Positions 12,720 through 47,500 are shown, counted from the first letter of the stretch. The stretch: 61,083 bases of DNA from Acidimicrobiia bacterium (GCA_003231975.1 QIKW01000270.1:1-61083), one strand, 5' to 3'. Program-made: numbers and translations. The notes: generated from the letters alone by a model not told the origin.

Positions 12720-13967
12720 GTGATTCAGAAACGATCAACCACGCGGTTAGCACTGCTGTTTGGTTTTGCGCTGGTAGCGGCCGCCTGCGGGGCCGATGCC
12801 GACGACACAGCGCCAGCCAGCGACACCGAGGCGCCTGCGGACGCCGAACCCGCAAACACCGAGCCAATCAAGATCGGGGCTCTCACTTCTCTTACCGGAG
12901 TGTTCACATCGTGGGGGATCCCGTCAAGCAAGGGCATGCAGCTGGCAGTTGATGAGATTAATGCGGCGGGCGGTGTCGACGGCCGCATGTTGGAACTGGT
13001 TGTTGTTGATGACCAGTCAAACCCTGAAGAGGCGGTGATTGCGTTTGAACGCCTGATCGAAGAAGGTGTGGTTGCAGTTGGCGGCACCATCTCAAGTGGT
13101 GTGGGGCTGGCTACTGCCTTGGTGGCTGAGGAGCAACAAATTCCGCTCTTCCTCAGCAAAGCCGGATCGGCTGCCATCCTCACCACCGACAGCCGCTACA
13201 CGTTCAGGACGTGCCTCCCTGCCGCGCCAATGATCGCCGAACCCTGGGCCCAGTACGCAACCGAGCAAGGCTTCACCAGGATCGGCGTGATCATCGCCGA
13301 CTACGAGTGGGGCCAGTCATTCGGAAGCGCAGTCGAGTCTGAGTTTGGGAGCTTGGACGGCGTCGAGTACCAAATCGAAGTGGCCCCTGTGCCCGAGCAA
13401 GACTTCACCACCTACCTGCGGAGCCTTGAAGCATTCGAGCCAGACCTCATTCTTGGCACGGGCCACCCACCAGGCGTTGCTGCTATCACGGTGCAGTCTG
13501 CCGATCTTGGGTTTGACGTTGGGGTCTCTGGGCCGTCATCTTCACTGTCGGCAGTGATGAGCGCCGTAGGCGATTCGGCTATCGGCCGCTACCTCGACTA
13601 CAGCTGCGCCGACTACTTCAGCGATTCCTACCAGGATCTGGCTAAGCGCTACATAGCTTCCTCCGGGGAAACCTTCATGGAAGACGACGCCGTGGCAGGA
13701 TTCGGCGTTGTCACAATGGTTGCCGATGCGGTCAAGAATGTTGGCGACGATCCCGCCGCAATAGCGGCATACCTCCACACCCAGACTTATGACCTGCCCG
13801 GCTATGCCTTCCAGATGGGTTGGACCGAGTGGGGCGAATTGGCAACCTCCCAGCCGTTGTTGATCCAGGTTGGGGCCGGGCCGGCGCCGGAGGGCTTGAA
13901 CACCGGCGGAGACTGGTACCCCGAGCTTTTGCTCTTGCCAGATGTGCTTGAGCCCTATGTCCCGTAA
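12720..13967 (+). CDS. Liv-type (Peripla_BP_6) ABC substrate-binding lipoprotein
   Basis: Lipobox VAAAC, acidic linker, LivJ/K-like periplasmic binding fold. First gene of a 5-gene transporter. Confidence 0.9.
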   Translation: MIQKRSTTRLALLFGFALVAAACGADADDTAPASDTEAPADAEPANTEPIKIGALTSLTGVFTSWGIPSSKGMQLAVDEINAAGGVDGRMLELVVVDDQSNPEEAVIAFERLIEEGVVAVGGTISSGVGLATALVAEEQQIPLFLSKAGSAAILTTDSRYTFRTCLPAAPMIAEPWAQYATEQGFTRIGVIIADYEWGQSFGSAVESEFGSLDGVEYQIEVAPVPEQDFTTYLRSLEAFEPDLILGTGHPPGVAAITVQSADLGFDVGVSGPSSSLSAVMSAVGDSAIGRYLDYSCADYFSDSYQDLAKRYIASSGETFMEDDAVAGFGVVTMVADAVKNVGDDPAAIAAYLHTQTYDLPGYAFQMGWTEWGELATSQPLLIQVGAGPAPEGLNTGGDWYPELLLLPDVLEPYVP

Positions 13968-13973
13968 CAATCG

Positions 13974-14717
13974 GTGACCCTTCTGGAACTGGCCGGAGTT
14001 GAGAAACACTTCGGCGGTCTCCCCGCCGTCGCAGGCGTGGATCTCAAGGTCAACGAGGGCGAGATTCTCGCCCTCGTTGGCCCCAACGGAGCAGGCAAGA
14101 GCACTCTGCTAAAAGCCATCAGCGGTCTCCAGCCGCCAACTCTTGGAAGTATCAAGCTTCTTGGCAAGGAGATCGCCGGTTTGTCGGCCCACCAGACCCG
14201 CAGGCGAGGCGTGGCAATGGTGCTGCAAACCCCGCGCACGTTCCATTCAATGACTGTTCGGGAGAACGTGATGATCGGCGCCATGTTCGGCTCATCCGCC
14301 GGAACAACCAGTGCCCCCTCAATCGCAGATCGGGCTAACGAGTCCCTCGGATTCGTTGGCCTCACTCACCTGGCAGACCAGTCTGTAGACACCCTCAACC
14401 TGCACCAGCAGAGGTTTCTGGAGCTGGCAAGATCCCTGGCAGGCAGGCCCAAACTGTTGCTGTTGGATGAGGTAATGGCTGGCCTGAACGACACCGAACT
14501 GCGGGCCTCCATAGACATCGTGAGGCTGGCGAGGGATCAGCTCGGCGTTACCGTCATCTGGGTCGAACACGTGATGAAGGCCGTGATGAGCCTGGCCGAG
14601 CGGGTGGTTGTGCTTGACTTCGGGTCGCTGCTGGCCGACGGCCAACCAGCCGACGTGATGCGCAATCCCAAGGTGGTAGCCGCCTATCTGGGCGCAGAAA
14701 TCCAAACCAATGGCTGA
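13974..14717 (+). CDS. livG: Branched-chain amino acid-type ABC transporter ATP-binding protein
   Basis: Walker A GPNGAGKST and Walker B LLLLDEV. Confidence 0.9.
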   Translation: MTLLELAGVEKHFGGLPAVAGVDLKVNEGEILALVGPNGAGKSTLLKAISGLQPPTLGSIKLLGKEIAGLSAHQTRRRGVAMVLQTPRTFHSMTVRENVMIGAMFGSSAGTTSAPSIADRANESLGFVGLTHLADQSVDTLNLHQQRFLELARSLAGRPKLLLLDEVMAGLNDTELRASIDIVRLARDQLGVTVIWVEHVMKAVMSLAERVVVLDFGSLLADGQPADVMRNPKVVAAYLGAEIQTNG

Positions 14718-24875: not shown

Positions 24876-25213
24876 GTGAATACCTCAAATCTTGTTCGTT
24901 AGTCGGTAAGACCGTAACAGATCTCTCACGTATCAGTGGGCAGGTTGTGGCCAAGCTACGAACTCGTGACGTTCTGACATGGGCCGCTACTCGTCGTCAT
25001 CACAGCCGCCATCACGGTCGTCCCTCAAGAACTCATTGAGCGCTGGGGTTGGCCCGGGTGGTTCGACCGACCGGAGCGCAGCGGCAGCCTCAGCCAAACC
25101 AACGACGACTGGATGTCCGGCCAACTCGGGCTCAACCGTGCCTTCCAATCCCTTGTTGAGGTGCCCCGCCGAAAGATCTCTCATATTGGCCGGATGAACG
25201 GATTCCGATCCGG

Positions 25214-25771
25214 TCAGGAAACCACCTGCGAAGCGATTTCTTTATGAAGACGTCGGAGGCCGCGACGCTGCAGAGCCTTCACCGCCGAGACTGGCTTTCC
25301 TACGACGCTAGCAACCTGTTCCAGGCTCAGATCGGCGATCATCCGCAAGGCAACGACCTCTCGCTGCTGAATCGTCAAGACATTCAGAAGCTCCAGCGCG
25401 TCCGCAGTTCCCAGCCGAGCAAGAGCTTCGACTTCAGCTGACGGATGGGGCAGAACCGACACTGATTCGTCAGCCAACTTCGGCCTGCGTTCTCTGGCGC
25501 GGTGAGCGTCCACCAGGTGATTCCTGGCGATAGCGAAAACCCATCGCGTAAAGCCCGCCTCATCACCCTCAAACGAATCAAGGCTGCGAAACACACGCAA
25601 CAACACCTCGTTGGCTACCGCATCGGCATCTTCGGTACCACGCACCAGAGCGAACGCCTTGACCCTTCCCGCATAAGAACGGTACAACCGGTCAAAGGCA
25701 TCGCTATCGCCTTGAAGGGCCGCAGCCAAGACAAGCTCGAACGACGAACCGAGGCCCCCTACCTCAGTCAC
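25214..25771 (-). CDS. ECF-type RNA polymerase sigma-70 family factor
   Basis: Region 2 (FTRWVFAIARNHLVDAHR) and region 4 (LSLEQVASVVGKPVSAVKALQRRGL). GTG overlaps the upstream TAG by 1 nt. Confidence 0.9.
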   Translation of the reverse strand: MTEVGGLGSSFELVLAAALQGDSDAFDRLYRSYAGRVKAFALVRGTEDADAVANEVLLRVFRSLDSFEGDEAGFTRWVFAIARNHLVDAHRARERRPKLADESVSVLPHPSAEVEALARLGTADALELLNVLTIQQREVVALRMIADLSLEQVASVVGKPVSAVKALQRRGLRRLHKEIASQVVS

Positions 25772-26814
25772 TAGCGCAGCGGGGCGGCGAATTCGCCCCG
25801 GTCGGGGCTATGCCTCAATGGTTGCGCATCGGGAAGAGCCTCGCACACGGCCTGTGCCGCCAACAGTTCGCTTGTCTGTTTTCCAACGTCACGAAACCGG
25901 TAGAGCGCTGCCAGCCGAAGCCACGTGTGGCGCTGGACGGTTCGTACTGTTTCCAGATCGATGAGGCGAACCTCGCGGTAGCCATCCAGAAATGCTGAAA
26001 CCTGGCCAGCGGCCAGCTTCGGCGCCAGCCCAGCCTGGATTTTGCGAAGCACCAGATGGGCTGCGAGGTTGCCAACATCAACTTCGCCAGCCCCGGTGGT
26101 CAGACCGTCCATGTCTATGACTGCGACCGAGTCGTGACTCAGGATCAGGTTCTTGTCATGGAGATCGCCGTGAACCACTGCACGCCCACGGAAATTCGGC
26201 TGCGGCAGTTCAGCCAGCAAGCGCCGGAGCGTTGCCGCCCATTCCGGGTCGGCGCGGGCCGTTGTGTCCAACCAACTCTGGTCTGCTCCTTTGTCACCGG
26301 GGGTAAGGCCCGGCGGTGGAACGTGGCTGTGAATCTTGCCGAGCGTTCGACCAACAGCTCGAAGCTGATCTGCGGTGACGGTGTCTCCAGCAAGGAGTTC
26401 ATTGAGGGAAGGCCCCACTATGGCCGACAACTCAATCCTGCCGTCGCGGTGGACCGAAAGAACCTTCGGTGCCGCGATTCCCAGCGATTCAGCCAACTGA
26501 TGGCGATGCGCAACTGCCTCCACCCGTGAGGCTCTGAGCACCTTGATGAAGCGGCCTCGTTTCGCAACTACTGCCCTTCGGTTATGGCGATACGAAACCA
26601 GCTGGCCCCCTTCGGCAAGAGCGGGGCCCAGACCGGGAAGAGCTTTGTCGGCCAACGGATTGACCGGAACCACCAAACCAGTCTCGGGCCAGAGAGTGCC
26701 CCACTTGGATTTGTCAGTAACGGTCCAGTGGCCGCGCCGCTTTGGATAGGTGATCGGCCACTCCTGAAGCCACGGAGCAGCGGAAGCAATTGGCGGGCGA
26801 CGGGTGGCGCTCAT
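25771..26814 (-). CDS. APH/choline-kinase-fold phosphotransferase (kinase-like)
   Basis: VVHGDLHDKNLIL ... IDMDG catalytic and Mg-binding motifs. Confidence 0.75.
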   Translation of the reverse strand: MSATRRPPIASAAPWLQEWPITYPKRRGHWTVTDKSKWGTLWPETGLVVPVNPLADKALPGLGPALAEGGQLVSYRHNRRAVVAKRGRFIKVLRASRVEAVAHRHQLAESLGIAAPKVLSVHRDGRIELSAIVGPSLNELLAGDTVTADQLRAVGRTLGKIHSHVPPPGLTPGDKGADQSWLDTTARADPEWAATLRRLLAELPQPNFRGRAVVHGDLHDKNLILSHDSVAVIDMDGLTTGAGEVDVGNLAAHLVLRKIQAGLAPKLAAGQVSAFLDGYREVRLIDLETVRTVQRHTWLRLAALYRFRDVGKQTSELLAAQAVCEALPDAQPLRHSPDRGEFAAPLR

Positions 26815-28073
26815 CGCAACACGCTTGCGCCGTGCTGCATGACGTCGCCTGCCATGTCAAGCAGCACTTTTGCTCGATCCTCGAATCCAGGTTCGAGATG
26901 GCGTGAAACCAGCAAGGCCTGATCCAGCAGGGCTGCTGCTGTGTAGAACGCAAGATCACCCGATCCGGACGGGTTGTCCTGCTGGTGGAGCTCAACGGAC
27001 TCGCCGACAAGCGAGGTCAGCAGGGCAATCGGGAGCTCTGGCCGTCGAACTGCCAGCGCATGCGGGTGGGCCAGCAGTCGGCCAGCGTCTCGGTACGGAT
27101 GACCAATTGCGGCTCGCTCCCAGTCGACCAGCCACACAGCGTCGCCGTCAACCATGAACTGGTTCAGGTGAAGGTCGCCGTGAGAAACTCCGAGCCGGCC
27201 GGGGCATGGAGCGCGCCTGTCAAGCAGGGCACTGAGAAGCCTGAACTCACGATTCGGCCCAGGAAGGTAGGAGGCAACATCATCCAGTACCCGCTGGGTG
27301 CGATAGAGATCGAAGCCAGGCGTCTCGACGTCGAGCCCCGCCTTATCGATCCGACCGATCCGACCGAGAATGTCTGCGATCGCCGCCGGTTCTGGCCGGT
27401 TCTGTCTGATTGTCTCAACCAGAGGCTCAGCGGTCAACGCCTCCTCCAGGTGGAGACGACCGTCTTCCAGGCAGGCGATTGGTTCGGGAACGTTTATGCC
27501 CGCAGCGCGGGCGGCCGTATTCACTCGGCCAAGCTTGGGTGCAGCCGAATTGCTGGTGAGACGGAAGAAGAAAGATAAGTCCGGTCGCTTTGGCGACTTC
27601 GGGACCAGGTGCGCTAGGCCGACCAACCGTCTCTCCGGCTTGTACCGCAATACTTTGACACTTGAGCGCAGATAGTCGAACGGGGCCCCACCCAAATGAT
27701 CACCTACGACGTACCGGATCTTCTCAGCAGAGCTGACCCAGCGCAGCCGCCGGATCTTGGCGTCGTTGGGGAACAGGAACAAGGCGGCATGAGGATCAAG
27801 AAGGCGGACCCCTGGCCCAAGATCAGAGCAAGCAGGCTTCTTTGTGTTGGCCTTGGCAACGATGCGGGCTGCCCTCTCCTTTTCGTGGCTCCAGCGCAGA
27901 TAGCCTCGATGGGTCCGGGCTTCTGACCGCATTTCCAAGGCAACCACCATTCCCGAGCCTGGTTTGTAACGAACATAAGTGGCCTCTGCGGCCTCGATGT
28001 CCATCCCCCCTGCCACGAGGAAGCGAGTCAACTCGCCGGGGTCGGTTAGCTGCTCGGCAACGGAACTGATCAT
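26811..28073 (-). CDS. APH-fold phosphotransferase (kinase-like, maltokinase-sized), paralog of the downstream kinase
   Basis: VSHGDLHLNQFMV ... LVDWE. Shares the YKPERR/YRHNRR N-lobe motif with 25771..26814. Confidence 0.7.
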   Translation of the reverse strand: MISSVAEQLTDPGELTRFLVAGGMDIEAAEATYVRYKPGSGMVVALEMRSEARTHRGYLRWSHEKERAARIVAKANTKKPACSDLGPGVRLLDPHAALFLFPNDAKIRRLRWVSSAEKIRYVVGDHLGGAPFDYLRSSVKVLRYKPERRLVGLAHLVPKSPKRPDLSFFFRLTSNSAAPKLGRVNTAARAAGINVPEPIACLEDGRLHLEEALTAEPLVETIRQNRPEPAAIADILGRIGRIDKAGLDVETPGFDLYRTQRVLDDVASYLPGPNREFRLLSALLDRRAPCPGRLGVSHGDLHLNQFMVDGDAVWLVDWERAAIGHPYRDAGRLLAHPHALAVRRPELPIALLTSLVGESVELHQQDNPSGSGDLAFYTAAALLDQALLVSRHLEPGFEDRAKVLLDMAGDVMQHGASVLR

Positions 28074-29830
28074 GCGGTTCGCCTTTCTTCCAGCTGCTCA
28101 ACCTCAAGGTGGAGCTTCCCGTCTTCGAGGTGAAGCTGAAATCCGGCCCCCAGTTCTTGAGGGTCGCCATGGTGCACAACGAGAGCTGTTCTACCCTCGG
28201 CGAGGCTGGCGATTGCCCCGATGACCTCTTCGCGCGAAGTTGTGTCCAGGCCGCTGAGAGGCTCGTCCAACAGCAAAATTGGGGCGTCTCGGAGCGCCGC
28301 CCTGGCCAGCATCAAGCGTCTGGCTTCGCCTCCGGAGAGAGACTGGCCGTCTTCGTCAAGCACCGTGTCATAACCATCGGGAAGCCCGTCGATCACCGTG
28401 TCGAACCTTGCGACCAATGCCGCTGCTTCCACTTCCTGCTCGGTTGCCTCGGGCTTCCCATAGAGGATGTTGTCCCGGATCGAGCCGCTGAACAGAGACA
28501 GCTGCTGAGGCACATAGGCAATCTGGGATCGGTAGCTGGCCAGCTTGAAGGACTCGATTGGATGCCCGTCAACGAGAATCTCGCCCGAAGATGGTTTGTA
28601 GAGGCGCATTAGCAGCGCCAGCAGCGTTGATTTCCCAGAGCCGTTGTCGCCGGTCACAACAACGAAACCGCCGGCGGGCAAGCGCACCGATAGCCCTCGC
28701 AACGATTGACGCTTATCGTGATAGCGGTGATGAACGTCGTCGAAGACAAGTTCTCCTCGGAGACGGGGAGCCTTCACCCCACCTCGAGGACCTTCAACCG
28801 GCAAGTCAAGCACGTCAAGCACTCGAGCCGCGCACGCTGTGGCCTTGGCCAGCCGCGCCGCTTCGCCTGTAAGCTTCCTGATTGGCTTGTACATCATCCG
28901 GGTGTAGCTCATAGTCACCAGCAGCTCCCCCGGGGTAAGTAGCCCTGCCCGAACCTTGAAGGCCCCAAACGCCAACACCAGACCGACCCCGGCCCCGGTC
29001 AGAACTTCGGTGGTTCGAGCCAGTCTGGCTGCGTGGCGGGTGGCGGCCATTGTTGCCCGCTCCGCTCCCCGGGCGTCCCTCGTGAACTTCTCCGTTGTGC
29101 GCTTCTCGGCCCCGAACGCCTTCGTAAGATCGATGTGTCTCAGCGCCTCGGCAACGTTGGCGGCAATGCTTCCCTCCTTGCGACGTTGTTTGCCAGCAGC
29201 ACTCTTCACCTTCTTCGATGCGGTCTTGACCCCAACCCAGAGCAGCGGAATTGGCACCAAGGCCAGCAAGAACAGCCTCCAATCGATGATTGCAAAGATG
29301 ACGGCGGCACCAATCAGAACAGTTCCCCTGGACATGATGTTGAGCCAGGACGAAAAGAGCAGGTCCCTCACCATGTTCACGTCGCCCATGATTCGCATAA
29401 GTAGGTCGCCGGTCTGACGGCGCTGATGCTCGGTAAGTTCGATCCTGTGCAAGTGCCGGAACACGTCGGTGCGGATACGAACGGTTGCCTTGCGAGAAAT
29501 CTTGGCAACCGCTATTTGCAGCCGTTCGGTGACCCCGCCGATGGCCGCGGGAACAAAGAACGCCATGGCTGCGAACACCACCAACGACCGGTCTGAGATA
29601 CCAGACAACGCCGTGCCGGCGGCCTCTGGGTCCGCCACTGTTGTGAGGGCATCGATCACCCACTTGACCGGCCACGGACGGACTAGCTCAAGCGCTGTGA
29701 GACCCAGAGCAAGGGCGCCCGCTCCCACCATCGCCAGCTTCTGATCATAAAGCACATGTCGAAACTGAACCCAGGCCCGACCAACATCGCCCCGGTTCAC
29801 CGGGACAGCCAACTTGTTTTGCAACCTCAT
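28070..29830 (-). CDS. ABC exporter, fused TMD-NBD (MsbA/lipid-flippase-like)
   Basis: Six-TM domain, Walker A GDNGSGKST, signature LSGGEARR, Walker B ILLLDEP. Confidence 0.9.
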   Translation of the reverse strand: MRLQNKLAVPVNRGDVGRAWVQFRHVLYDQKLAMVGAGALALGLTALELVRPWPVKWVIDALTTVADPEAAGTALSGISDRSLVVFAAMAFFVPAAIGGVTERLQIAVAKISRKATVRIRTDVFRHLHRIELTEHQRRQTGDLLMRIMGDVNMVRDLLFSSWLNIMSRGTVLIGAAVIFAIIDWRLFLLALVPIPLLWVGVKTASKKVKSAAGKQRRKEGSIAANVAEALRHIDLTKAFGAEKRTTEKFTRDARGAERATMAATRHAARLARTTEVLTGAGVGLVLAFGAFKVRAGLLTPGELLVTMSYTRMMYKPIRKLTGEAARLAKATACAARVLDVLDLPVEGPRGGVKAPRLRGELVFDDVHHRYHDKRQSLRGLSVRLPAGGFVVVTGDNGSGKSTLLALLMRLYKPSSGEILVDGHPIESFKLASYRSQIAYVPQQLSLFSGSIRDNILYGKPEATEQEVEAAALVARFDTVIDGLPDGYDTVLDEDGQSLSGGEARRLMLARAALRDAPILLLDEPLSGLDTTSREEVIGAIASLAEGRTALVVHHGDPQELGAGFQLHLEDGKLHLEVEQLEERRTA

Positions 29831-30921
29831 GTCGGGCCAAGCGCCATACGCCCAGACAAGGCCAGCCCGATGGCCGCCTCAGTGCGTTCGGCAACATGCG
29901 CCCAAGTCATCGACTCAAAAGCCCGACGCCTACCCGCCCTCCCCATTTGTTCCCGGCCGCGACGGTCGTCCAAGAGCGATCCAACTGCGTCCGCGAATTG
30001 CTCGTCGTTGTCGGGGTCAGAAACCACCAACCCTGCGTCGCCAACCAGCTCGCCGATGTCTCCCTGGTCGGTCGACACGATCGCCAGGCCCGCAGCCAGA
30101 TAGTCCAGAATCTTCAGTGGTGAAAAATAGAAACCAGGTTGAGCCTTGTAGGGGGCCAACCCGACAGCAGCTCTGGTGACCAGCAGGCTGGCAATATCTG
30201 GTTCCACCGCTCCGGTAATCGTCAGCTGCGATTGAACGCCTTGACGGGCCGCTACTTGTTCCAACTCGTCGCCACCATCTCCGCCGCCGATCACCGTGAC
30301 CTGCGGCCGATGACCTCGTTCGTTGAGGAGGCGAATCAGATTCGGTATTCGGTCCGCACCATGCCAGGGCCTCGGGTGACCAAGAAACACAAGCCTGTCA
30401 TCGCGGTCTGAGTGTCGAACCCCATCGGGAAACCAGGCGGGTTCGAATCCGTTCGGGATCACAACGACAGGGCCGTCTCGCAAGGTGCGGGCCCATGCAG
30501 CCAACGTTCGGGAAACAACGATCACAACATCGGCATCACGTAGCAATCTCTCCTCTCGTTCCCCCGCTCCGGGGTCTACCGTCTCTGGTCGATGTTGTCT
30601 TGCCTCTGAAACCAGCGGAGCGTTCACCTCCAGAACAAAGGGGACGCCAAGGCGCCGGGCGTAGCGCAGGCCGCCGCCGCTTGAGAGTGAATAGCGCTCA
30701 TAGACCAGGTCGATGGCGGTTGCGGTCTCCAACTCGGCCAAGCGGACGCAATGAACCGGATGGGGCCCCAGCTGCTCTCGTTCGCTGTAGGTGGTGACGC
30801 TGTGGCCAGCTTCAACCAGACCACCGGCCACACCAGCCAGATGCCGGGCTGCCCCCTTCGTTCCGCCAGGCGCTATTCCCCGATCAGCGCAGAGTTGAGC
30901 GATACGTAGGCTCTGTTTCAT
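29827..30921 (-). CDS. Glycosyltransferase, GT4 family
   Basis: GT-B fold pattern with C-terminal PLKILDYLAAGLAIVSTDQGDIGELV. Confidence 0.85.
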   Translation of the reverse strand: MKQSLRIAQLCADRGIAPGGTKGAARHLAGVAGGLVEAGHSVTTYSEREQLGPHPVHCVRLAELETATAIDLVYERYSLSSGGGLRYARRLGVPFVLEVNAPLVSEARQHRPETVDPGAGEREERLLRDADVVIVVSRTLAAWARTLRDGPVVVIPNGFEPAWFPDGVRHSDRDDRLVFLGHPRPWHGADRIPNLIRLLNERGHRPQVTVIGGGDGGDELEQVAARQGVQSQLTITGAVEPDIASLLVTRAAVGLAPYKAQPGFYFSPLKILDYLAAGLAIVSTDQGDIGELVGDAGLVVSDPDNDEQFADAVGSLLDDRRGREQMGRAGRRRAFESMTWAHVAERTEAAIGLALSGRMALGPT

Positions 30922-32153
30922 GCCGTCACCAGCCGATTACCGGTGAAGACCTCGATTAGCTCATCTGCTGTGGATTCACGGGAGAAGCGCTCGGCCAGTC
31001 GAATCGGGCCTGCTGCTGCCAGCCGCGACCAAAGCGCAGTATCGGTAAGGAGCTTCATGATGCCGTCTGCCAGTTCTGTGGCACTTCCGGGTGAGACCAA
31101 CAGGCCCTGCCGATGATCGGTAATGATCTCAGGCACACCGGCGACCGGTGTTGAAACTGCTGGCAAGCCTGCGGCCAGGGCCTCCAACAACACGGTCGGA
31201 AGAGCATCCTGGTTGCCGTCGGCCCCAACCACACAAGGAGCAGCCACCACTGTCGCGGTTCGCAACCAGCGAGACACTTCTGTTTGCGTAACAGCTCCCC
31301 GGAAGTCAACCAGATCCTCGATTGCCAGATTGGCGGCCTGGCGTTCGAGCTGAACTCTTTGGTCGCCGTCTCCAAGGATCACACACTGGACTGGCTGCTC
31401 TTTGGCCCTCAGGATCGCGACTGCGTCCAACAGAACGTCGAAGCCCTTCTTTTCAACGAGCCGACCCACTCCAACAACTAGGTCCTTCAGCCGACCGCTT
31501 GGCGGTGCAGGTGGTTCGGGATCGTTCAGGCCGTTGTAGATCCGCCGTAGATTGACCTCGGGCCCAAGTTTGATTTCCAGATGCTCACGGTTGGCATCAC
31601 ACACCGTCACAATCGTCGCCGCCTCCTTGGCTATCAATTGGGCCAGATCCCAATCCACGGTGTGGCGGTAGATGTCTTTGGCGTGGGCGGTCACCGAGAA
31701 AGAAATGCCGGTAAGCAGGTGGGCCAGGTAGGACACATGGGCCGCGATCGTAAGGAAGTGGGCATGGAAGTGAGTGACACCGCCGTCAACTGCCTGGCGC
31801 GCTACCGCAACAGCCTGAACCATTAGGTCGGCCCGCCGCGAGGCTGGGACGCGCTCCAACATCGACACCATCTCGTCGTACCGACCAAGATCCAGACCAG
31901 CCATTGCCGCAAAGGCATCTGCGGCTGCGGCCCTTCCCAACTGAGAAGGGTAAACAACGTCTCCTTGATAGTCAGCAAGCGCTGGGTGGAACCGGCCCTC
32001 GGTTGGCACTCTCAGCGAGAACACCCGGGTAGGAACTCCGGCCGCTTGAAGAGCCAGCAGTTCGTGCAGAATGAACGTTTCTGAAAGGCGCGGGTACTGT
32101 TTCAGCACGTACCCAATGAAGGGATCCTTCCCAATCAACGGATCCTCAGCCAT
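30918..32153 (-). CDS. Glycosyltransferase, GT4 family (WcaL-like)
   Basis: ALPTVLLEALAAGLPAVSTPVAGVPEII motif. Confidence 0.85.
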   Translation of the reverse strand: MAEDPLIGKDPFIGYVLKQYPRLSETFILHELLALQAAGVPTRVFSLRVPTEGRFHPALADYQGDVVYPSQLGRAAAADAFAAMAGLDLGRYDEMVSMLERVPASRRADLMVQAVAVARQAVDGGVTHFHAHFLTIAAHVSYLAHLLTGISFSVTAHAKDIYRHTVDWDLAQLIAKEAATIVTVCDANREHLEIKLGPEVNLRRIYNGLNDPEPPAPPSGRLKDLVVGVGRLVEKKGFDVLLDAVAILRAKEQPVQCVILGDGDQRVQLERQAANLAIEDLVDFRGAVTQTEVSRWLRTATVVAAPCVVGADGNQDALPTVLLEALAAGLPAVSTPVAGVPEIITDHRQGLLVSPGSATELADGIMKLLTDTALWSRLAAAGPIRLAERFSRESTADELIEVFTGNRLVTA

Positions 32154-33402
32154 GGCTGGCCACCGCTTCCACCGGTACCACTCGCAGCAAAAGCCTCGCT
32201 AGATTCCCGGCTCCGCCGAGGTCCAAAGAACAAGACTGGCGAGGCGACCCAGTGGCACTCCGAACAAAGGCGCCCAACCTGGCACTTGTCAGATCGTTGG
32301 CCCGGCACCACTCGAGGTGAGACACCTGAGAAAGCCGCTTGGCTCGAAGAGTTTGCTCTAACCGAGGCTCGGACCGGGGAACGAGAAGAGCGGGAGTCCC
32401 GGCCGCAAGCAGCTCAACAACCGTGTTGTATCCCGCCATCGCAACTACAGCATCGGCCTCGCCAAGACGATTGCGCATTTCTGGATCGAATGTCTTAATC
32501 TCAACATCACTTCCAACCAGGGCCGCCAATCGGGCCAGGCTCTTGCGGCGGCGGCCCGACATCAGTGGGCCAGTAACAACGAGGCTGTGGAAGTCCGCTC
32601 CTGGGTTCTCGACACAGAACTTTAGATACCGATAGCACAGGTCATAGCCGTCACCCCCACCACCAACCGTCACCACAACAAATGGCTTCCTGTTGCCAGC
32701 GCGACGACTGGAATCCGCCCGGGGGCCAGCTGCCGGCGCAGCGTACCCAACGTGGTCGATCGGTTTGCCCAGCCGAGCCTGTAGATCAAGGTCATCCGCC
32801 GTTGATCGCACCCGTCGGTCACCGTAAACAACAACATCGTCATAGCGACTGAGCAGGTTCCAGACTCCGTTCCTAGACCATTCAGCCCTAACTCGACGCG
32901 GCTCGTCGATGATGTCACGAAGCCCCAACACCATCCGAGGCCGCAGCGGGTTGTCGGCCATCCCGGCAAAGACCGGCAACAACTCCCCGCCCATGCCCGC
33001 CGGGGCATGGTCTACCAGCATTACATCAGGCCGATACGCACCAACCGCGGCCTCAATTACCGTCGAGCGAAGCTCCACAACACTTTCGATGTCTCCTGTG
33101 AGGCGACGCGGCCGGTAGGTGCCAGAAGCCGACTTCGTCACAGAAGGCAGCTGTAGAACATCAGTCCTGGTCGGCAACCTGAAGGAACTTGACCGAGGTG
33201 AGCCCGAAACGAGCAACACCTCGGCGTCCTCGCATTGAGCCGTCAACGCCTCGGCGATGGTCGTGTTGCGGCGCAAATGGCCGAGCCCGTAGGTGTCGTG
33301 GCTATAAAAGAGAAAGCGGCGGGTCATGTGACTCTCACAGTCCTTGGTGTTCCAGAACACCCACAGCATGAACCGAGTCGGGTCCTCATTGGTATCCGAC
33401 AT
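32146..33402 (-). CDS. Predicted glycosyltransferase (COG4671 / GT28-like)
   Basis: N-terminal FYSHDTYGLGHLRR motif, typical of this family. First gene of the operon. Confidence 0.7.
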   Translation of the reverse strand: MSDTNEDPTRFMLWVFWNTKDCESHMTRRFLFYSHDTYGLGHLRRNTTIAEALTAQCEDAEVLLVSGSPRSSSFRLPTRTDVLQLPSVTKSASGTYRPRRLTGDIESVVELRSTVIEAAVGAYRPDVMLVDHAPAGMGGELLPVFAGMADNPLRPRMVLGLRDIIDEPRRVRAEWSRNGVWNLLSRYDDVVVYGDRRVRSTADDLDLQARLGKPIDHVGYAAPAAGPRADSSRRAGNRKPFVVVTVGGGGDGYDLCYRYLKFCVENPGADFHSLVVTGPLMSGRRRKSLARLAALVGSDVEIKTFDPEMRNRLGEADAVVAMAGYNTVVELLAAGTPALLVPRSEPRLEQTLRAKRLSQVSHLEWCRANDLTSARLGAFVRSATGSPRQSCSLDLGGAGNLARLLLRVVPVEAVASHG

Positions 33403-33435
33403 TGGTCCTAGGACTCTTCTTATTGGGACCTGCTC

Positions 33436-33470
33436 TCGCAGGTCCGGCTCCGCCCATCCAGGTCAATAAC
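33436..33470. repeat. 35-bp direct repeat, copy 1 (TCGCAGGTCCGGCTCCGCCCATCCAGGTCAATAAC), followed by a short GC hairpin
   Basis: Identical to 33581..33615. Followed by the palindrome GTCGCCGACGGCGAC. Confidence 0.9.
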
Positions 33471-33580: not shown

Positions 33581-33615
33581 TCGCAGGTCCGGCTCCGCCC
33601 ATCCAGGTCAATAAC
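33581..33615. repeat. 35-bp direct repeat, copy 2
   Basis: Perfect copy 145 bp from copy 1. Followed by the palindrome GCCGACGCCGTCGGC and the shared tail CGCCAAAC. Confidence 0.9.
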
Positions 33616-33687: not shown

Positions 33688-33704
33688 GGAACTCTTCGAG
33701 TTCC
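33688..33704. promoter_or_regulatory. Palindrome GGAACTC-N3-GAGTTCC (site 1)
   Basis: Perfect 7-bp arms, in the leader of the GT operon. Confidence 0.5.
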
Positions 33705-33759
33705 TGGGCCAGGCAGGATCCGGCTTCGCCGGTCCTGACTGAAACAAACAGCCCGCCGG

Positions 33760-33776
33760 GGAACTCCCCGAGTTCC
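33760..33776. promoter_or_regulatory. Palindrome GGAACTC-N3-GAGTTCC (site 2)
   Basis: Same arms as site 1, 72 bp away, just downstream of the response-regulator stop. Confidence 0.5.
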
Positions 33777-33828
33777 TTGGCGCAACAAAAGACGCTCGGT
33801 CGAAAGGGTTTCCATTTCGACCGATTAC

Positions 33829-34446
33829 TTAGCTGTGGATGCCGTGGTCGCGAGCCCACCGAGCGGCCGCGGCCCGGTCTGGGGCTCCGATGGTGGCGTA
33901 GACACTTGTGAGATGGGCCTTCACGGTCTTTTCGGCTATTCCGAGCCTGGTCGCGATCTGACGGTTGGTCAACCCTGCCTCGATCAGCTCAAGCACATCG
34001 TTTTCCCTGGTTGTGATCGACAGTCTGGAGGGACCCCTCGAATCCACGAGCGCTCGGGCCGCCGTGCTGTCTAAGTAGGACGCTCCAACCGAGGCGTCAC
34101 GAACCGCTCTGAGAATGTCTCCCGGCGGTGCGTCTTTCACCACATAGCCAATCATGCCCACATCGAGGCTGGCCAAGACACGGCGATCCTCACGAAACGC
34201 CGTCAACGCCACAATTGCAATCTCTGGATGCAGATCATGAATTGTCTTTGCGGCCTCGATGCCAGAGACCGGGCTCATGCTCAAATCCATCAACATCACA
34301 TCGGGGCTCACCTCAGAGGCAAGGGCGATTGCCTCTTGGCCGCTGGTGGCGACACCGACAAGAGCGATGTCTTCAGCATCGCCAAGCATCACCTGCAGTC
34401 CCTCACGAACAATATGGTGGTCATCGGCAATAGTTACCCGAATCAT
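33829..34446 (-). CDS. NarL/LuxR-family response regulator
   Basis: Receiver domain (DDHHIV..., MDLSM) plus the LuxR HTH (NRQIATRLGIAEKTVKAHL). ATGA overlap with the kinase gene. Confidence 0.9.
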   Translation of the reverse strand: MIRVTIADDHHIVREGLQVMLGDAEDIALVGVATSGQEAIALASEVSPDVMLMDLSMSPVSGIEAAKTIHDLHPEIAIVALTAFREDRRVLASLDVGMIGYVVKDAPPGDILRAVRDASVGASYLDSTAARALVDSRGPSRLSITTRENDVLELIEAGLTNRQIATRLGIAEKTVKAHLTSVYATIGAPDRAAAARWARDHGIHS

Positions 34447-35759
34447 GCTGGTATCTCGAGCCGAAGGGAGGTGCCCTTTGGTTCCCTTGCATCTATGGCA
34501 ACATCAGCCTCAACGTCGGCTGCCAGGCCTCGCAGTAACTTAAGACCCATGCCCTTCTGATCAGAGACCGACGGTTCGTAGCCGCCGCCATCGTCCATGA
34601 CCGAAGCAACCATGCTTCTCTCATCAGAGACCAGAGACACCTGCACGTTGTCGGCGTTTGCGTGCTTCACAACGTTGCGCAGTCCTTCTTGGACAAATCG
34701 GTACACGAGGCGCTGATGGGGGCCAACGTCTGCTTCAACAGAAACCTTTGTGTCCAAGCCGTACCGATGGTTGTACTGATCGGCCAAATCATTCAAAGCG
34801 GCCTCAAGGCCTACCTCAACTAGGTCAGGAGGGTGGATCTCGATCGCAAGCGTGCGGAGCGACTGAAGCGAGTGCCTCAGGCCTGCCGTTGCTTTTTCGA
34901 TCCTCATCGAAACGTCTCGATTTCCATTGGCCGAGCGGTTTCCGTTAACCGAATTTCCTGCTGCCGACACAAGCATCAGGGTGCCAGACAAGTCTTGGAT
35001 CACGCCGTCGTGGAGATCGGCCGCTATGCGGCGACGCTCAAGCATCGACGCATCGACGGCCCGGGTCAAAAGCTGCTCGCGCTCTAGCGCCGAGCGCACC
35101 ATCCGAGCCTCCATTCTGGCTGCTGTCAACAGTGTAAGGAGGCCAACCAACGCCAAGCTGATCAGCACAATAGGCACCACCGTTGAACGGATTCGGGCAC
35201 TTGCTGCGTCTACTGAACCCGTGGTGAAGTACGTCTCGAAGAGCATGGTTTCGCCATTGGGGCCGTCGAAAGGGAGATAGACCTCCAGAAGTGGCCCGAG
35301 TTCCTGTTCGAATCGGTTTTCGGGATCCCCGAGGTCAAGACTCTCGGCCACCGCTACCGCTTCGGTAACTGCTCGAAGCCGATCCGGCTGGATCGAATAG
35401 TGTTCACCAATCAACTCGGTCGCGTCGGAGTAGACGATGGTTCCGTTGGAGAGCCAAACCTTTACTCGCACAAACGACTCGTCGAGCAGGCGATCCCTTA
35501 CTCGCTCGTCCAGCTTGGCCAAGGCCTCAGGATCGCCGTCGATCAGTTCTGCTGTTAACAACGGCGCAAGCACAGACCGAAGCGACGCCTCGGTGACAGA
35601 CCGAGCTTCATTCAGAGCTTCTCGGTGGCCAGCTCGCTCAGAAGCCCAGACAGCTCCAGCAGCTACCAGGGCCAAGCCCAGGAGAGTCAGAATCAGAAAC
35701 TGTAAGAAAGGGCCATGCCGCCAACCCTGTGTCGCCCCTGGGGCTGCTTCTGCTGTCAT
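34443..35759 (-). CDS. Sensor histidine kinase (HisKA_3 / NarX-DesK type)
   Basis: RRRIAADLHDGVIQDL H-box, HATPase_c motifs, two TM helices. ATG 35759 is preferred over the ORF-track start 35858. Confidence 0.85.
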   Translation of the reverse strand: MTAEAAPGATQGWRHGPFLQFLILTLLGLALVAAGAVWASERAGHREALNEARSVTEASLRSVLAPLLTAELIDGDPEALAKLDERVRDRLLDESFVRVKVWLSNGTIVYSDATELIGEHYSIQPDRLRAVTEAVAVAESLDLGDPENRFEQELGPLLEVYLPFDGPNGETMLFETYFTTGSVDAASARIRSTVVPIVLISLALVGLLTLLTAARMEARMVRSALEREQLLTRAVDASMLERRRIAADLHDGVIQDLSGTLMLVSAAGNSVNGNRSANGNRDVSMRIEKATAGLRHSLQSLRTLAIEIHPPDLVEVGLEAALNDLADQYNHRYGLDTKVSVEADVGPHQRLVYRFVQEGLRNVVKHANADNVQVSLVSDERSMVASVMDDGGGYEPSVSDQKGMGLKLLRGLAADVEADVAIDAREPKGTSLRLEIPA

Positions 35760-35966
35760 GTCTCCCCTTTGCCGAGCCGTCGAGGCGGGTATAGGAGTCT
35801 GCCCGCAGCGCGGGGCAGACTCCTGGGTGTTTCGGCAACTATATGAACGACGGGCCAACAGAACAGGAAACCACCGAAACCGAAATCTTTGGGAGAACTC
35901 TCAGCCTGGTGAGCCAGCGCCGCCCGGCCTTGCGCGGATCCAATGCACCCGGGCCTGGCTGGCCCG

Positions 35967-44531: not shown

Positions 44532-47500
44532 ATGTTTCGCCGAATTCCCGCCGCGCTTGCGAGCTTCGTAGTGTTTGCTGCGCTGGTTACCGTTCCACTA
44601 GTCGGTGGAACACCTGCTGCCGAAGCTGCCGCAGACGACAACTTCTCACTAACCAAGTCAGACAGTGTTGGCGGCGAGGCCCTCATTGGAGAGAACGTTA
44701 CCTACACCCTCACCGCATCTGGCACGCAGTCTTCAGCTGCGTATCTGTACAACCTGTCGTTCCGGGATGTGCTGCCTGCCGGTGTGTCCTTCGTTTCGGC
44801 CGATCCGGCTCCGACTGCAATTCTGAGCGACGTCCCAACCGCCGGACAGACCACGCTCATCTGGGAAAACACCAGCGACCTGCCTGCGGCTTCCAACGCA
44901 TCCGTTAGCTACACAATCGACACCAACCCAGACTTCGCCGGTGGCACTTCTGGCTCCGGCACCGTTCCTGTTGGCGCAACCGTTCCCAACTCAGCTCAAG
45001 CAGTGGCATCCCTGAACGCATTCCTAATCCCAGACTGGAGCCCAACCACTGGTGCCTTCACCGGCGACTTCGACGGCGAAGCCAGCGCCACCAACTCTCT
45101 GAACGTTATTGCGTTCCGCGTTACGAAGAGCGGCCCCGGCGAGTTGCTGCGCGGCGTGCACGACAACGGCTTCGGCGGCCGCAGCGGCTCCGCCGGAGAC
45201 ACATTCACAATCGAGATCCGTAACAATCCGGACTACGCAACCAACTCGGTCTCACTTCTAGACGTGCTTGACCCTCAGCTCGAGTTCTTGGGCTGCGCTA
45301 GTTATTATCCGCTAGGCGACGACAACTCAACCGACGTGCCTTTCCGAGAGTCCGCGGCGGCCCCAGATGAGGAATGGGCGGGCTCGGGCCAGATGGCAAC
45401 AGGAGCAGGCACCTGCACCACACCAACTTCGGTTGACACCGTCGACGCAGGCATCGGCGGCGGTTTGGCCAACACCGAGGTTCTCTGGGACCTCGGGAAC
45501 CTCGCGCCAAACGATGTGGTCACGGTTCAGTACCTTGCCGGTATCCCAATGCGGGCCAACACAACCACCTGGACCACCGTTGGTGGCCAACCCACAGCGG
45601 CCTCACTGGATCAGGGCCGCAACCTCGACAACAACTCGGGCCCCTCGACCAACGAGTTGGACCGAACGCTGAACGCAGACCCCGAACTACTGACCGACGG
45701 TGCGCCCGCCATTGCCAACACAGCAACTGCCAGCGGCACCTACACGCCGTCTGGCGCTGTTGCCACCGACACCGACATCCTCCAGACCGAGGCTGAAGAC
45801 ATCATCATCACGAAGAGCGCGGCGGGAACCTTGAACCACGGAGCGGTGATCTCGAACCAACTTACGGTCACGACTGGCGAGTACCGAGACTTCACCAGCT
45901 TGGTGGTTCGAGACCTTCTGCCAAGTGCGCTTTGTTACACCGGCGGCTTTGGGTCAGACAACACCCCGGGCGGCTCAGACTGGAACAGCAACGACTGCTC
46001 GGGAGCAGGCAGCGGAGCTGGCAGCTCTACCTCGGTGCGAGAAATAGCGGCGGGCGGGCCGTACGGTACCGGCCGATTCGAGATCGTCTGGGACCAAACA
46101 AGCGTGCCAGGTTTGGCCGACCTGGACAGCGACTCTTCGATCACAATTGGCTACGACGCTGTGGTCCGCACCGACTACCGCGGTGGCCTTGCCAGGCTTA
46201 CAGCAGAACCCGTTCTAGCTGGCGACTCTGTCACCAATGTGGCTGAGGTTTCCGGGCCAGACTTTGTGGTTGCCGCCCACGTCAACGACGGAGGCGCAGA
46301 CGACGAGGCTGACGGCGGGATCGACGGAGACACCACGTCTGCCAGCTTGTCCAACAGCCTGCCAAATATCAACAAGCGCATCTCGGCCAAGGCCGGGCCC
46401 CTAGCCACCGGCAGCAACGTAACTGGCGCGGTCTGCGGTGCTTCTTATGGCTCGATCACCTGGCAAGACACCGTTGCCACTGGCTTCGGCCCTGGCGAAA
46501 TCGTGTGTTTCGAACTGGGAGCAAGCTTTCCAAGCACAATCGACTACGAGAACGTCGTAATCCAGGACCTCCTACCTCCCGGCTACACCTACGTTGCCGG
46601 ATCAGCAGCCAGGATCGCCTCGATCGATGACCTCCCGGGAACAACATTTGACGCCACCACCCTCCGCTGGAACCTCGGAACGGTTAACAACCCCGGGCAC
46701 CAGTTCCGTTGGGTAATTGCTGTGCAGATTGGTGTGCCAGACGACGGTGTTGCACTTGACATCAACGCCAACCTCCAGAAGATGACCCACAACCAAAGCG
46801 CCGGGACCGTGTTCCAGTACCGAGACGAGGTGCCTGCTGAGTGGACCGAACCCCAGCTTGACCTGGCAAAGGGAGTTCAGAACGTTGACGCTCCAGACAA
46901 CACGCTTGACCTTGGACCGAACGGAATCGACTTTGACGGATCAACCACCGGTGGATCGACCTCGGTTCAGGTTCAGGCAGATGCGGTTGTCACCTTCAGG
47001 GTTGATGTTTCCAACGACGGGAACGAGCCCGCCCTGGCCGTTGAGGTCTGGGACCGAATTCCAACCGGCTTCACCTGCACAAACGTTTCAGCCATCAGTG
47101 CCGGCGGCTCATGTTCGGCCGGGCTTATCAGCTGGACAGTGCCAACGATCACGTCGGCGACACCAGCTCAGCTCACCTACGACCTTACAGTTCCAGCCGA
47201 CGTTGTTGCCGACGAGAGTTGGACCAACGAGGCAGGCGTGCGCACCTACCAGGCCGCGCTCAACTCAGACACCGCAGCCGACTCTGATCCGAACACCAAC
47301 GGCGGCCGCTACGACTACTACCCCCGCAACAACATCGACCCAACCGTTACATCCAACACCGATGACGCCGACGACGTGGCATTCATGTTCACCGCCGCCC
47401 CGTCTCTGGCCAAGGCTCAGGCCTCCGGTATCAGCGAAGCTGGCAACCCAAGCAATGGCACGCCCGCTGCTGGCCTGGACCGGGCAACGATCGGCGAGAT

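Follow-up and report, generated by a model that had tools for sequence, protein, structure and literature searches.

A conserved cassette of three glycosyltransferases, an ABC exporter and two APH-fold kinases, followed by an ECF sigma factor in one Acidimicrobiia genome

The DNA considered here is a stretch of 61,083 nucleotides (nt) from Acidimicrobiia bacterium (GCA_003231975.1, QIKW01000270.1:1-61083), which we refer to as the window, and our subject is a run of seven overlapping minus-strand genes within it, together with the regulatory DNA that precedes them (Table 1). In order, these genes encode three glycosyltransferases (GT1, GT2 and GT3), an ATP-binding cassette (ABC) exporter, two kinases of the aminoglycoside phosphotransferase (APH) fold (K1 and K2) and an extracytoplasmic function (ECF) sigma factor. 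A preliminary description of the locus, made from the sequence, had treated all seven as one operon for the synthesis, phosphorylation and export of a glycoconjugate. Synteny outside this genome is very strong for the first six genes, but it does not extend to the sigma gene, which follows the cassette in this genome only.

All seven open reading frames (ORFs) are present (7/7) at the positions first assigned to them, and the junctions from GT1 to the sigma gene overlap by 8, 4, 4, 4, 4 and 1 nt, within the 1-8 nt originally reported. The junction sequences are ATGGCTGA (8 nt), ATGA at the next four and TAGTG (1 nt) at the last, where the GTG start of the sigma gene overlaps the K2 stop codon, as had been noted; this GTG also aligns with the N-termini of the sigma orthologues. 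A matching pattern of overlaps is seen in orthologous loci, for example 8, 4, 1, 4, 4, 4 and 1 nt at locus L001. The predicted domain content is borne out by Pfam, with Glyco_tran_28_C in GT1, Glycos_transf_1/Glyco_transf_4 in GT2 and GT3, ABC_membrane and ABC_tran in the exporter, APH in K1 and K2, and Sigma70_r2 and Sigma70_r4 in the sigma factor. Both GC content and GC at third codon positions (GC3) are even from the upstream histidine kinase gene through to a downstream solute-binding gene, and by these measures the sigma segment bears no mark of recent foreign origin.

One boundary does change. While the coordinates of the other six genes stand, GT1 most likely starts at 33327 and not, as first proposed, at 33402, because the starts of its orthologues align there and the additional codons overlie a conserved non-coding element. 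In four related Acidimicrobiia-type loci the GT1 gene calls all begin M-(T/S)-R-...-(F/V)-L-(L/F)-Y-S-H-D-T-Y-G, and the same start sequence occurs in the window at an ATG (MTRRFLFYSHDTYG...) lying 25 codons into the long ORF. The extra 75 nt of that ORF run into the conserved element described below.

Table 1. Features of the locus, in window coordinates, from the upstream sensor gene to the sigma partner remnant.
Feature	Position	Strand	Evidence
Sensor histidine kinase, HisKA_3/HATPase_c	34443..35858	-	NCBIfam, hydropathy
LuxR/NarL-type response regulator, Response_reg + GerE	33829..34446	-	Pfam, NCBIfam
Hairpin with U-run, putative terminator	33784..33824	-	RNA folding
Two GGAACTC-N3-GAGTTCC palindromes	33688..33704, 33760..33776 (span 33688..33776)	.	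Pattern search
Two perfect 34-nt direct repeats (TTATTGACCTGGATGGGCGGAGCCGGACCTGCGA)	33436..33469, 33581..33614	-	Pattern search
Conserved element AGTCCTAGGACCAATGTCG, consensus GGTCCTAGGACCAATGTCC	33397..33415	-	Comparison of intergenic regions
GT1, GT-B glycosyltransferase of GT1/GT28 type, 393 aa with revised start	32146..33327	-	PF04101, PDB profile, AF2, Foldseek
GT2, GT4-type glycosyltransferase, 411 aa	30918..32153	-	Pfam, NCBIfam NF041876 sub-threshold
GT3, GT4-type glycosyltransferase, 364 aa	29827..30921	-	Pfam Glyco_transf_4 + Glycos_transf_1
ABC exporter, fused transmembrane and nucleotide-binding domains (TMD-NBD), MsbA/PglK/NdvA type, 586 aa	28070..29830	-	Pfam, TIGR02203 sub-threshold
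K1, APH/choline-kinase-fold kinase with extra N-terminal domain, 420 aa	26811..28073	-	Pfam, AF2, Foldseek
K2, APH-fold kinase, K1 paralogue, 347 aa	25771..26814	-	Pfam, alignments, PDB profile
ECF-type sigma factor, 185 aa, GTG start	25214..25771	-	Pfam regions 2 + 4, TIGR02937
65-aa ORF, truncated homologue of the N-terminus of the sigma partner	24987..25184	-	blastp

The six-gene cassette is found well beyond this genome. A word-based homologue search with K1 returned 18 relatives, the best at 52% identity, and the contigs carrying them share the order histidine kinase, LuxR regulator, GT1, GT2, GT3, ABC exporter, K1, (UDP-glucose dehydrogenase), K2, which is the order of loci L001-L007; on none of these contigs does a sigma gene follow K2. 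One genome per species was then scanned with a K1 alignment, giving 79 loci that were searched by tblastn with the window proteins and with kinase profiles, and essentially all complete loci among them carry GT1-GT2-GT3-ABC followed by two kinase domains. At least six phyla, and about 75 species genomes within them, share this order; the genomes include Acidimicrobiia (among them Ilumatobacter), Arthrobacter/Pseudarthrobacter, Planctomycetota (Phycisphaerales), Gemmatimonadaceae, Zixibacteria, Chloroflexota (Caldilinea, Litorilinea), Pasteurellaceae (Aggregatibacter, Actinobacillus, Pasteurella, Glaesserella), Neisseria, Cardiobacterium, Lautropia, Erwinia/Kalamiella, Lampropedia and Thauera. 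In none of the ~75 related cassettes does a sigma gene abut or couple to the second kinase, and we no longer count the sigma factor as a member of the unit.

How the cassette genes are joined to one another and to their neighbours is also informative. An exhaustive search with the K1 profile gave 1157 cluster representatives at E <= 1e-30, and the top matches are mostly proteins of 750-820 amino acids (aa) with two matched stretches, which are fused K1-K2 proteins; fusion of the two kinases is frequent and found in many genomes. In a single homologue, P0382, the ABC exporter is fused to a K1-type kinase, which argues that the kinase works on, or together with, the transport substrate. A gene for UDP-glucose 6-dehydrogenase lies within or beside the cassette at about 40 loci, and at 14 loci, all in Gram-negative-type lineages, a gene for an AlgE-like outer-membrane barrel (Alginate_exp) lies 3′ of the cassette on the same strand. 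The closest relatives of the window cassette (L001, L003 and L005, 60-67% identity) have as their 3′ neighbours an ATP-grasp-like gene, an HDOD gene or the end of the contig, while L003 and the window have in common a ferric-reductase-like gene upstream of the two-component system; because of this shared upstream gene and these differing downstream neighbours, the 5′ boundary of the cassette is syntenic and its 3′ boundary is variable. Compact islands show that the cassette is self-contained. In Erwinia endophytica (L049 4436..13503) the cassette and porin form an island between hflX-hflK-hflC and purA-rnr, and in Aggregatibacter kilianii (L033 4315..13358) the cassette and dehydrogenase lie between a gene for a CdaR-type regulator (Diacid_rec/PucR) and one for a DeaD-type helicase; neither island contains genes for a priming transferase, a polymerase, a ligase or the synthesis of an aglycone. 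Domains of Wzx, Wzy, Wzm/Wzt or a processive family GT2 synthase are absent from the window cassette and from the compact islands.

Some members of the wider family are unusual. P0374 (1349 aa) and P0376 (1371 aa) are single ORFs in which two APH kinase domains and an Alginate_exp outer-membrane barrel are joined, and P0400, of similar size (1358 aa), has two kinase stretches; kinase-barrel ORFs of this sort are hard to square with cytoplasmic kinases and may be read-through products, assembly errors or something unexpected. Most genomes of Aggregatibacter actinomycetemcomitans (L052 and cluster members) appear to hold only fragments of the cassette, including a 203-aa piece of UDP-glucose dehydrogenase on 45 contigs, with intact copies in A. 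kilianii and strain SL7469. Metagenome fragments of 54-55 aa also cluster with the GT1 and kinase proteins, and together these pieces suggest that the island is decaying.

The first glycosyltransferase has an invariant N-terminal motif, SHDxxGxGH..R, and matches PF04101 and, below threshold, TIGR00661 (MJ1255/VC2487), consistent with the COG4671 label it had been given. Its profile finds MurG (4.9e-10) as well as YjiC and OleD in the Protein Data Bank (PDB). An AlphaFold2 (AF2) model of GT1 (predicted local distance difference test score, pLDDT, 92.4) matches, by Foldseek, macrolide and other natural-product glycosyltransferases (OleI/OleD and the kitacinnamycin and calicheamicin enzymes), plant UDP-glycosyltransferases (UGTs) and MurG. 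Against the MurG equivalog TIGR01133 it scores 27 bits for a cut-off of 250; fold and C-terminal domain are similar, while the gene context differs. GT2 and GT3 are of the GT4 type, both matching PF00534 and PF13692, with PF13439 and PF13579 also found in GT3 and PF13579 weakly in GT2. From their sequences they resemble GT4 enzymes of exopolysaccharide (EPS) and teichuronic acid synthesis, GT2 matching NF041876 (EPS EpsE/WcaL type) over its full length but below threshold (172 bits, cut-off 400) and GT3 giving sub-threshold NCBIfam matches to stp3 and TuaH. The exporter has predicted transmembrane segments and the ABC_membrane plus ABC_tran architecture of MsbA and PglK, scoring 317.3 bits against TIGR02203 (MsbA, cut-off 602) and 142.1 bits against NF050066 (PglK, cut-off 1000), and Pfam detects no peptidase domain in it. 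It falls below every NCBIfam equivalog cut-off, and no protein of the cassette reaches one.

Both kinases score well above the PF01636 cut-off of 23.2 bits (K1 47.8, K2 51.0), which places them among the APH/choline-kinase-like proteins, and they are paralogous, as had been suggested (29% identity over 174 aa, E 8e-8). The catalytic residues are retained on alignment in each, namely the HGDLH loop and the downstream metal-binding aspartate. K1 has the motifs YKPERR, HGDLH and DWER, of which HGDLH and D317-W-E-R are invariant. Its R171 is invariant in the 18 closest K1 homologues and stands at the position of K2 K91, a residue kept by at least 90% of K2 homologues and one that we take to be the usual ATP-binding lysine; H215, D217, D234 and D236 of K2 are invariant. 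The AF2 model of K1 (pLDDT 92.0) finds mycobacterial maltokinase as its best Foldseek match in the PDB, over its full length, followed by APH(3′) and choline kinases. The best PDB matches of the K2 profile are the capreomycin and viomycin phosphotransferases and APH(3′), with corramycin phosphotransferase also found. Almost all listed kinase matches are small-molecule kinases, apart from one weak protein-kinase chain (E 0.008), and WaaP, WaaY and WbdD appear neither in the PDB profile search (E <= 0.01) nor among the top 50 Foldseek matches. By sequence and predicted fold, K1 and K2 resemble small-molecule kinases (maltokinase, APH, viomycin and capreomycin kinases) and not protein kinases. 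As a separate observation, within residues 1-130 of K1 the strand/helix pattern and a Y-x-R-x-K-P motif of the kinase's own N-lobe recur, as would be seen after a duplication of that lobe.

The likeness of K1 to maltokinase raises the question of whether the kinases serve precursor supply, acting as sugar-1-kinases of the maltokinase or NahK kind whose sugar-1-phosphates would reach the glycosyltransferases directly or after activation, so that the exported product would itself be undecorated. The top structural match of K1 covers the N-terminal extra domain as well, and HGDLHxxQ is a catalytic loop such as sugar and small-molecule kinases have. However, the similarity is one of fold only (Foldseek E 2.5e-11, TM score ~0.5, 11-14% identity), no NCBIfam maltokinase model matches K1, neither treS nor glgE lies nearby, the cassette has no nucleotidyltransferase, and the exporter-kinase fusion P0382 fits a transported substrate better. 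We regard precursor supply as improbable.

Peptide modification can be considered on similar grounds, since TvaE, a peptide kinase, is among the Foldseek matches of K1, and LxmK, the class V lanthipeptide kinase, matches the two kinases weakly (36 and 33 bits, cut-off 315). The product would then be a ribosomally made, post-translationally modified peptide (RiPP) that is glycosylated, phosphorylated and exported by the ABC transporter. Against this, the loci have no conserved small ORF upstream of GT1, the exporter lacks a peptidase domain, lyase and cyclase genes are missing, and a UDP-glucose dehydrogenase and an AlgE-like porin are ill-suited to a peptide product. We rejected the RiPP explanation, the most improbable of those considered here: the search for small ORFs upstream of GT1 across loci returned artefacts only, and the locus does not qualify as a class V lanthipeptide system.

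The chief rival is that the cassette handles a small molecule. It would glycosylate (possibly glucuronidate) and phosphorylate a lipophilic molecule, whether a foreign toxin or antibiotic or a metabolite of the cell itself, and pump the conjugate out, much as macrolides are glycosylated and exported by ABC proteins or as antibiotic kinases provide self-resistance. The best structural matches of GT1 and the best profile matches of K2, given above, are of this kind, islands that lack aglycone genes fit an external or common substrate, and the two-component system upstream senses externally. Three glycosyltransferases are nonetheless excessive for detoxification, two of them being of the EPS-type GT4 class, and a dedicated UDP-glucose dehydrogenase is heavier still; an AlgE-like porin is typical of the export of anionic polymers, and GT1 matches MurG, an enzyme with a lipid-linked acceptor, about as well as it matches the natural-product enzymes. 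Among the PADLOC defence families, the glycosyltransferases, kinases and sigma factor have no match and the exporter shows only generic ABC-ATPase similarity. We think the small-molecule explanation unlikely, although better placed than the two preceding ones.

Control of the cassette appears to lie upstream, in a conserved two-component system and a palindromic element that the preliminary description had not picked up. The histidine kinase has two predicted transmembrane helices around an external domain of ~150 aa (by hydropathy) and partial NCBIfam matches to MctS, LiaS and NarX; the TTG at 35858 is probably not its true start, which would lie further downstream. A histidine kinase gene directly upstream of the cassette is kept in 13 Acidimicrobiia loci. 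In the window the response regulator gene overlaps the histidine kinase gene by 4 nt, and its product is 66-70% identical to the regulators of L001, L003 and L005. Directly after the regulator stop codon lies a hairpin of -20.9 kcal/mol (z-score -3.8; 0/200 shuffles as stable), a probable terminator that would part the two-component operon from the cassette operon. Because this stable hairpin with its U-run follows the regulator gene, the cassette probably has its own promoter.

Comparison of the intergenic regions between the regulator gene and GT1 revealed the shared element GGTCCTAGGACCAATGTCC, the first 12 nt of which form a perfect palindrome. The window has a single copy, with 2 mismatches, placed 70 nt upstream of the revised GT1 start; none occurs in shuffled sequences (0 expected by chance). 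Every one of the 13 loci with the regulator upstream (13/13) has the palindrome GGTCCTAGGACC, with up to 2 mismatches allowed, 100-400 nt upstream of GT1, as against 0/59 loci without the regulator; three of them, L016, L020 and L021, carry it upstream of the histidine kinase gene as well. Since the palindrome co-occurs with the regulator and recurs upstream of the sensor gene, we read the element as a putative operator, a probable binding site of the response regulator that would include autoregulation. The same intergenic region of the window holds two further kinds of repeat, each confined to it and with 0 matches expected by chance: GGAACTC-N3-GAGTTCC (2 matches in the window) and a 34-nt direct repeat (2 exact matches). 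Both are absent from the orthologous intergenic regions and could be further sites of regulation or else a small repetitive element. Rfam, searched with the whole window, matched no RNA family, and the 500-nt leader accordingly shows no sign of a riboswitch.

Other loci show variations in this region. In L004 a second copy of the palindrome (12296..12307) lies just after K2 and before a block of aminotransferase, AMP-binding, PP-binding and cupin genes, which suggests an extension of the regulon in that lineage. Four loci have an ORF of ~100 aa between the GGTCCTAGGACC element and GT1 (L013 4275..4733, L017 4397..4816, L023 4412..4732 and L026 4409..4804), with the shared motifs RRR(S/T)LR...EG.L...GGPP...CG.G...LLTG; this ORF is absent from the window. 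In L016, L020 and L021 the gap between the regulator gene and GT1 widens to 1.0-1.4 kb and includes a long repetitive stretch on the opposite strand (GTCGTC and GCCGCT runs) that could encode a Ser/Asp/Gly-rich protein.

At the 3′ end, the sigma factor consists of regions 2 and 4 only and belongs to the ECF class, scoring 72.8 bits against the general model TIGR02937 (cut-off 42.9), although it falls short of both TIGR02952 (BldN; 89.4 bits, cut-off 206.45) and PRK09648 (ShbA; 84.6 bits, cut-off 209). It has many homologues at 50-59% identity, and orthologues of 55-59% identity stand in unrelated contexts; a metagenome scan with the sigma alignment returned mostly distant sigma factors, with L090 alone informative. 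At all four orthologous loci with enough flanking sequence (L008, L009, L010 and L090) the sigma gene is adjacent to a gene for a partner protein. The neighbours of the pair are unrelated to the cassette in L009 and L010, and L090 has no cassette match; L008 has the pair ~6 kb upstream of a further cassette copy, one that lacks the two-component system. We found no shared -35/-10 dyad upstream of the four sigma orthologues.

This partner accounts for the small ORF that follows the sigma gene in the window. Where the preliminary description had seen no evident anti-sigma gene, the 65-aa ORF matches by blastp the N-terminal ~55 residues of the partners of the sigma orthologues (L008 1e-5, L009 6e-7, L010 2e-8, and likewise L090). 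The full-length partners are 282-359 aa long and, as read from their sequences, have a conserved N-terminus and one hydrophobic stretch that is likely membrane-spanning, and in two of the three from L008-L010 the C-terminal part is threonine-rich and strongly acidic. A conserved N-terminus with a single membrane span is the layout typical of anti-sigma factors, and the partner is probably one. The 65-aa ORF comprises the conserved, cytoplasmic N-terminal part with a short acidic tail. Membrane anchor and external part are missing, prediction places no transmembrane segment in it, and it has no Pfam match. The sigma gene of the window, for its part, has no intergenic region of its own, its start overlapping the K2 stop. 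The simplest reading of this arrangement is that the operon acquired, in this lineage, a sigma/partner pair at its 3′ end, with loss of the upstream region of the sigma gene and of most of the partner gene. The overlap also implies that sigma synthesis probably follows transcription of the cassette, and the earlier idea that the dose of the sigma factor is hard-wired to the operon is plausible, for this genome only.

It had further been proposed that all seven genes form a single unit with a sigma factor that is part of the pathway and under the control of the neighbouring kinases, which would phosphorylate or bind it. The overlap of the sigma start with the K2 stop would fit such a unit, as would the presence of ECF genes near two other cassettes, namely the orthologue upstream of the cassette in L008 and an ECF sigma/anti-sigma pair 1 kb downstream of that in L024. 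Yet the coupling to K2 is not repeated in any related cassette, the L024 sigma factor is of a different family, and in other genomes the sigma factor comes with a partner protein of its own. As for the kinases, they persist where no sigma gene is adjacent, occur fused with one another or with the exporter, and are most like small-molecule kinases. Control of the sigma factor by the kinases is unlikely, and a seven-gene unit of this kind seems to us very improbable; the sigma factor is a lineage-specific add-on that stands outside the conserved unit. The L024 pair (13220..14381, downstream of a fused-kinase cassette), made up of a SigK-like ECF sigma factor (33% identical) and an RskA-domain anti-sigma factor, is a second, independent ECF pair beside a cassette, from another sigma family.

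We favor an account in three layers, a cassette for an acidic glycoconjugate, two-component control and a sigma add-on, and consider it somewhat more probable than not. The six cassette genes (33327..25771) would assemble, on the cytoplasmic side of the membrane, a short and acidic chain of sugars attached to a common acceptor, probably a lipid. GT1, being MurG/UGT-like, would place the first sugar on a lipid or lipophilic acceptor, the GT4 enzymes GT2 and GT3 would extend the chain, K1 and K2 would phosphorylate it, and the MsbA/PglK-type exporter would carry the phosphorylated chain across the membrane; in Gram-negative-type relatives the AlgE-like porin would then allow passage through the outer membrane. 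Glucuronic acid is suggested as a building block by the UDP-glucose dehydrogenase that many relatives encode for themselves. Gene content, conservation, fusions, co-occurrence of the motif and fold similarities were observed directly; the acceptor, the sugars, the phosphorylation sites and the binding of the regulator and of the sigma factor to its partner are inferred. In Acidimicrobiia the histidine kinase and LuxR-type regulator would control the cassette through GGTCCTAGGACC, and in this genome the sigma factor, made along with cassette transcription, would complete a cascade from the two-component system to sigma; it would be dispensable for the chemistry of the cassette, and the kinases are unlikely to regulate it. 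A glycoconjugate is preferred because of the EPS-type GT4 enzymes, the frequent dehydrogenase, the porin and the exporter-kinase fusion, and it is backed by the precedents of WaaP/WaaY with MsbA and of WbdD; the synthesis, phosphorylation and export of a glycoconjugate, as first put forward, remains the best reading.

Several observations weigh against this account. The nearest structures of GT1 are natural-product and xenobiotic glycosyltransferases and the nearest sequences of K2 are antibiotic kinases, both of which are as compatible with a small-molecule substrate as with a glycan. K1 may not be a conventional kinase, because it has an invariant arginine where K2 has the near-invariant lysine. 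The window contains no UDP-glucose dehydrogenase gene. Genes for a priming phosphoglycosyl transferase, a polymerase, a chain-length regulator and a ligase are missing from the cassette, so that its gene content does not fix the acceptor or the size of the product. On the regulatory side, binding of the regulator to the palindrome is inferred only from their co-occurrence, a scan of the window for consensus promoters and terminators gave nothing above chance, and the sigma partner matches no Pfam anti-sigma family.

A bolder form of the account is offered tentatively, as a possibility clearly less probable than the three-layer version. It holds that the cassette, whether or not a UDP-glucose dehydrogenase and an AlgE-like porin go with it, is an undescribed, horizontally mobile and self-sufficient route for making and exporting a phosphorylated uronic-acid glycolipid or oligosaccharide, shared by Gram-positive- and Gram-negative-type bacteria, in which two APH-type kinases physically coupled to the exporter license export, and which has here captured an ECF sigma factor with an anchorless anti-sigma factor. 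If true, it would be a functional analogue of the phosphorylation and flipping of the lipopolysaccharide (LPS) core outside LPS biology, and in this genome induction of the envelope glycan and of the sigma regulon would be switched on together.

No description of the cassette was found in the literature outside subscription journals, and database names for members from cultured species are only generic ('glycosyltransferase family protein', 'phosphotransferase family protein', 'ABC transporter ATP-binding protein'). Members occur in cultivable genera of medical or agricultural relevance (Aggregatibacter, Neisseria, Cardiobacterium, Erwinia and Arthrobacter), and the six-gene islands of Erwinia and Aggregatibacter are experimentally tractable. 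Were the product identified, the biology of the bacterial envelope would gain a new glycoconjugate, at the surface or secreted, and a function could be given to a large group of proteins named 'aminoglycoside phosphotransferase family', whose genes probably do not confer resistance. In this genome, the conserved palindrome provides a candidate regulator-operator pair, and the sigma factor with its decapitated partner illustrates how gene capture rewires regulation in nature. Elsewhere in the window, the plus strand carries an ORF of 2873 aa (44532..53153).

Among known systems, the inner core of LPS (WaaC/F/G, WaaP/WaaY, MsbA) follows a similar logic, an analogy of function only where its kinases are concerned, in that cytoplasmic-face glycosyltransferases, including the GT4-type WaaG, build a short lipid-borne oligosaccharide, two sugar kinases act on it, and a fused TMD-NBD exporter then flips the product; WaaP is itself a kinase-fold sugar kinase of the LPS core (PMC6147952). 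The cassette differs in that it also occurs in Gram-positive-type bacteria that lack LPS (Arthrobacter, Acidimicrobiia), its kinases are APH/choline-kinase-like, with neither WaaP nor a kinase of 3-deoxy-D-manno-oct-2-ulosonic acid (Kdo) among the listed matches, its exporter falls below the MsbA cut-off, and it has no heptosyltransferase or Kdo genes. In the O9a O-antigen system of Escherichia coli, GT4 mannosyltransferases build a lipid-linked glycan in the cytoplasm and the kinase of the terminator WbdD phosphorylates it before ABC export, a phosphorylation that controls export (PMC3482155). There the transporter is a two-part Wzm/Wzt of the ABC-2 type and the kinase is part of a kinase-methyltransferase that has a coiled-coil ruler, whereas the cassette has a fused half-transporter of the MsbA/PglK type, two APH-type kinases and no methyltransferase. 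PglK/Wzk, which flips oligosaccharides linked to undecaprenyl diphosphate, is likewise a fused ABC exporter encoded among GT4 enzymes that make a short lipid-linked oligosaccharide, but the cassette has no priming transferase or oligosaccharyltransferase, its exporter scores 142 bits for a PglK model cut-off of 1000, and the pgl pathway has no kinases.

The kinases and the sigma factor have counterparts of their own. Mycobacterial maltokinase (Mak/Pep2) shares with K1 an APH-like core, an extra N-terminal domain and the HGDLHxxQ loop, but at ~11-14% identity and a TM score of ~0.5, without a TreS/GlgE context, and K1 has an arginine at the position of the K2 lysine. The macrolide enzymes OleI/OleD, with the exporters OleB/OleC, and the antibiotic kinases Vph, Cph and APH recall the GT1 structures, the K2 sequences and the ABC exporter encoded alongside; they differ in that the cassette has no antibiotic biosynthesis cluster, includes two EPS-type GT4 enzymes, is accompanied by a dehydrogenase and a porin, and keeps its compact island order across phyla. 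For the sigma factor, the nearest models are BldN and ShbA, ECF sigma factors with single-pass anti-sigma factors, which it resembles in having regions 2 and 4 and in orthologues that precede a gene for a single-pass membrane protein; it lies below their cut-offs (89 for 206 and 85 for 209 bits), its partner belongs to no Pfam family, and in the window that partner is cut to 65 aa and anchorless and the intergenic region of the sigma gene is lost. In agreement with the first impression that this gene order is not that of a characterised pathway, we found no characterised member; we would place the cassette with exporter-coupled glycoconjugate assembly that uses sugar kinases, and the capture of the sigma factor is a curiosity of a single genome.

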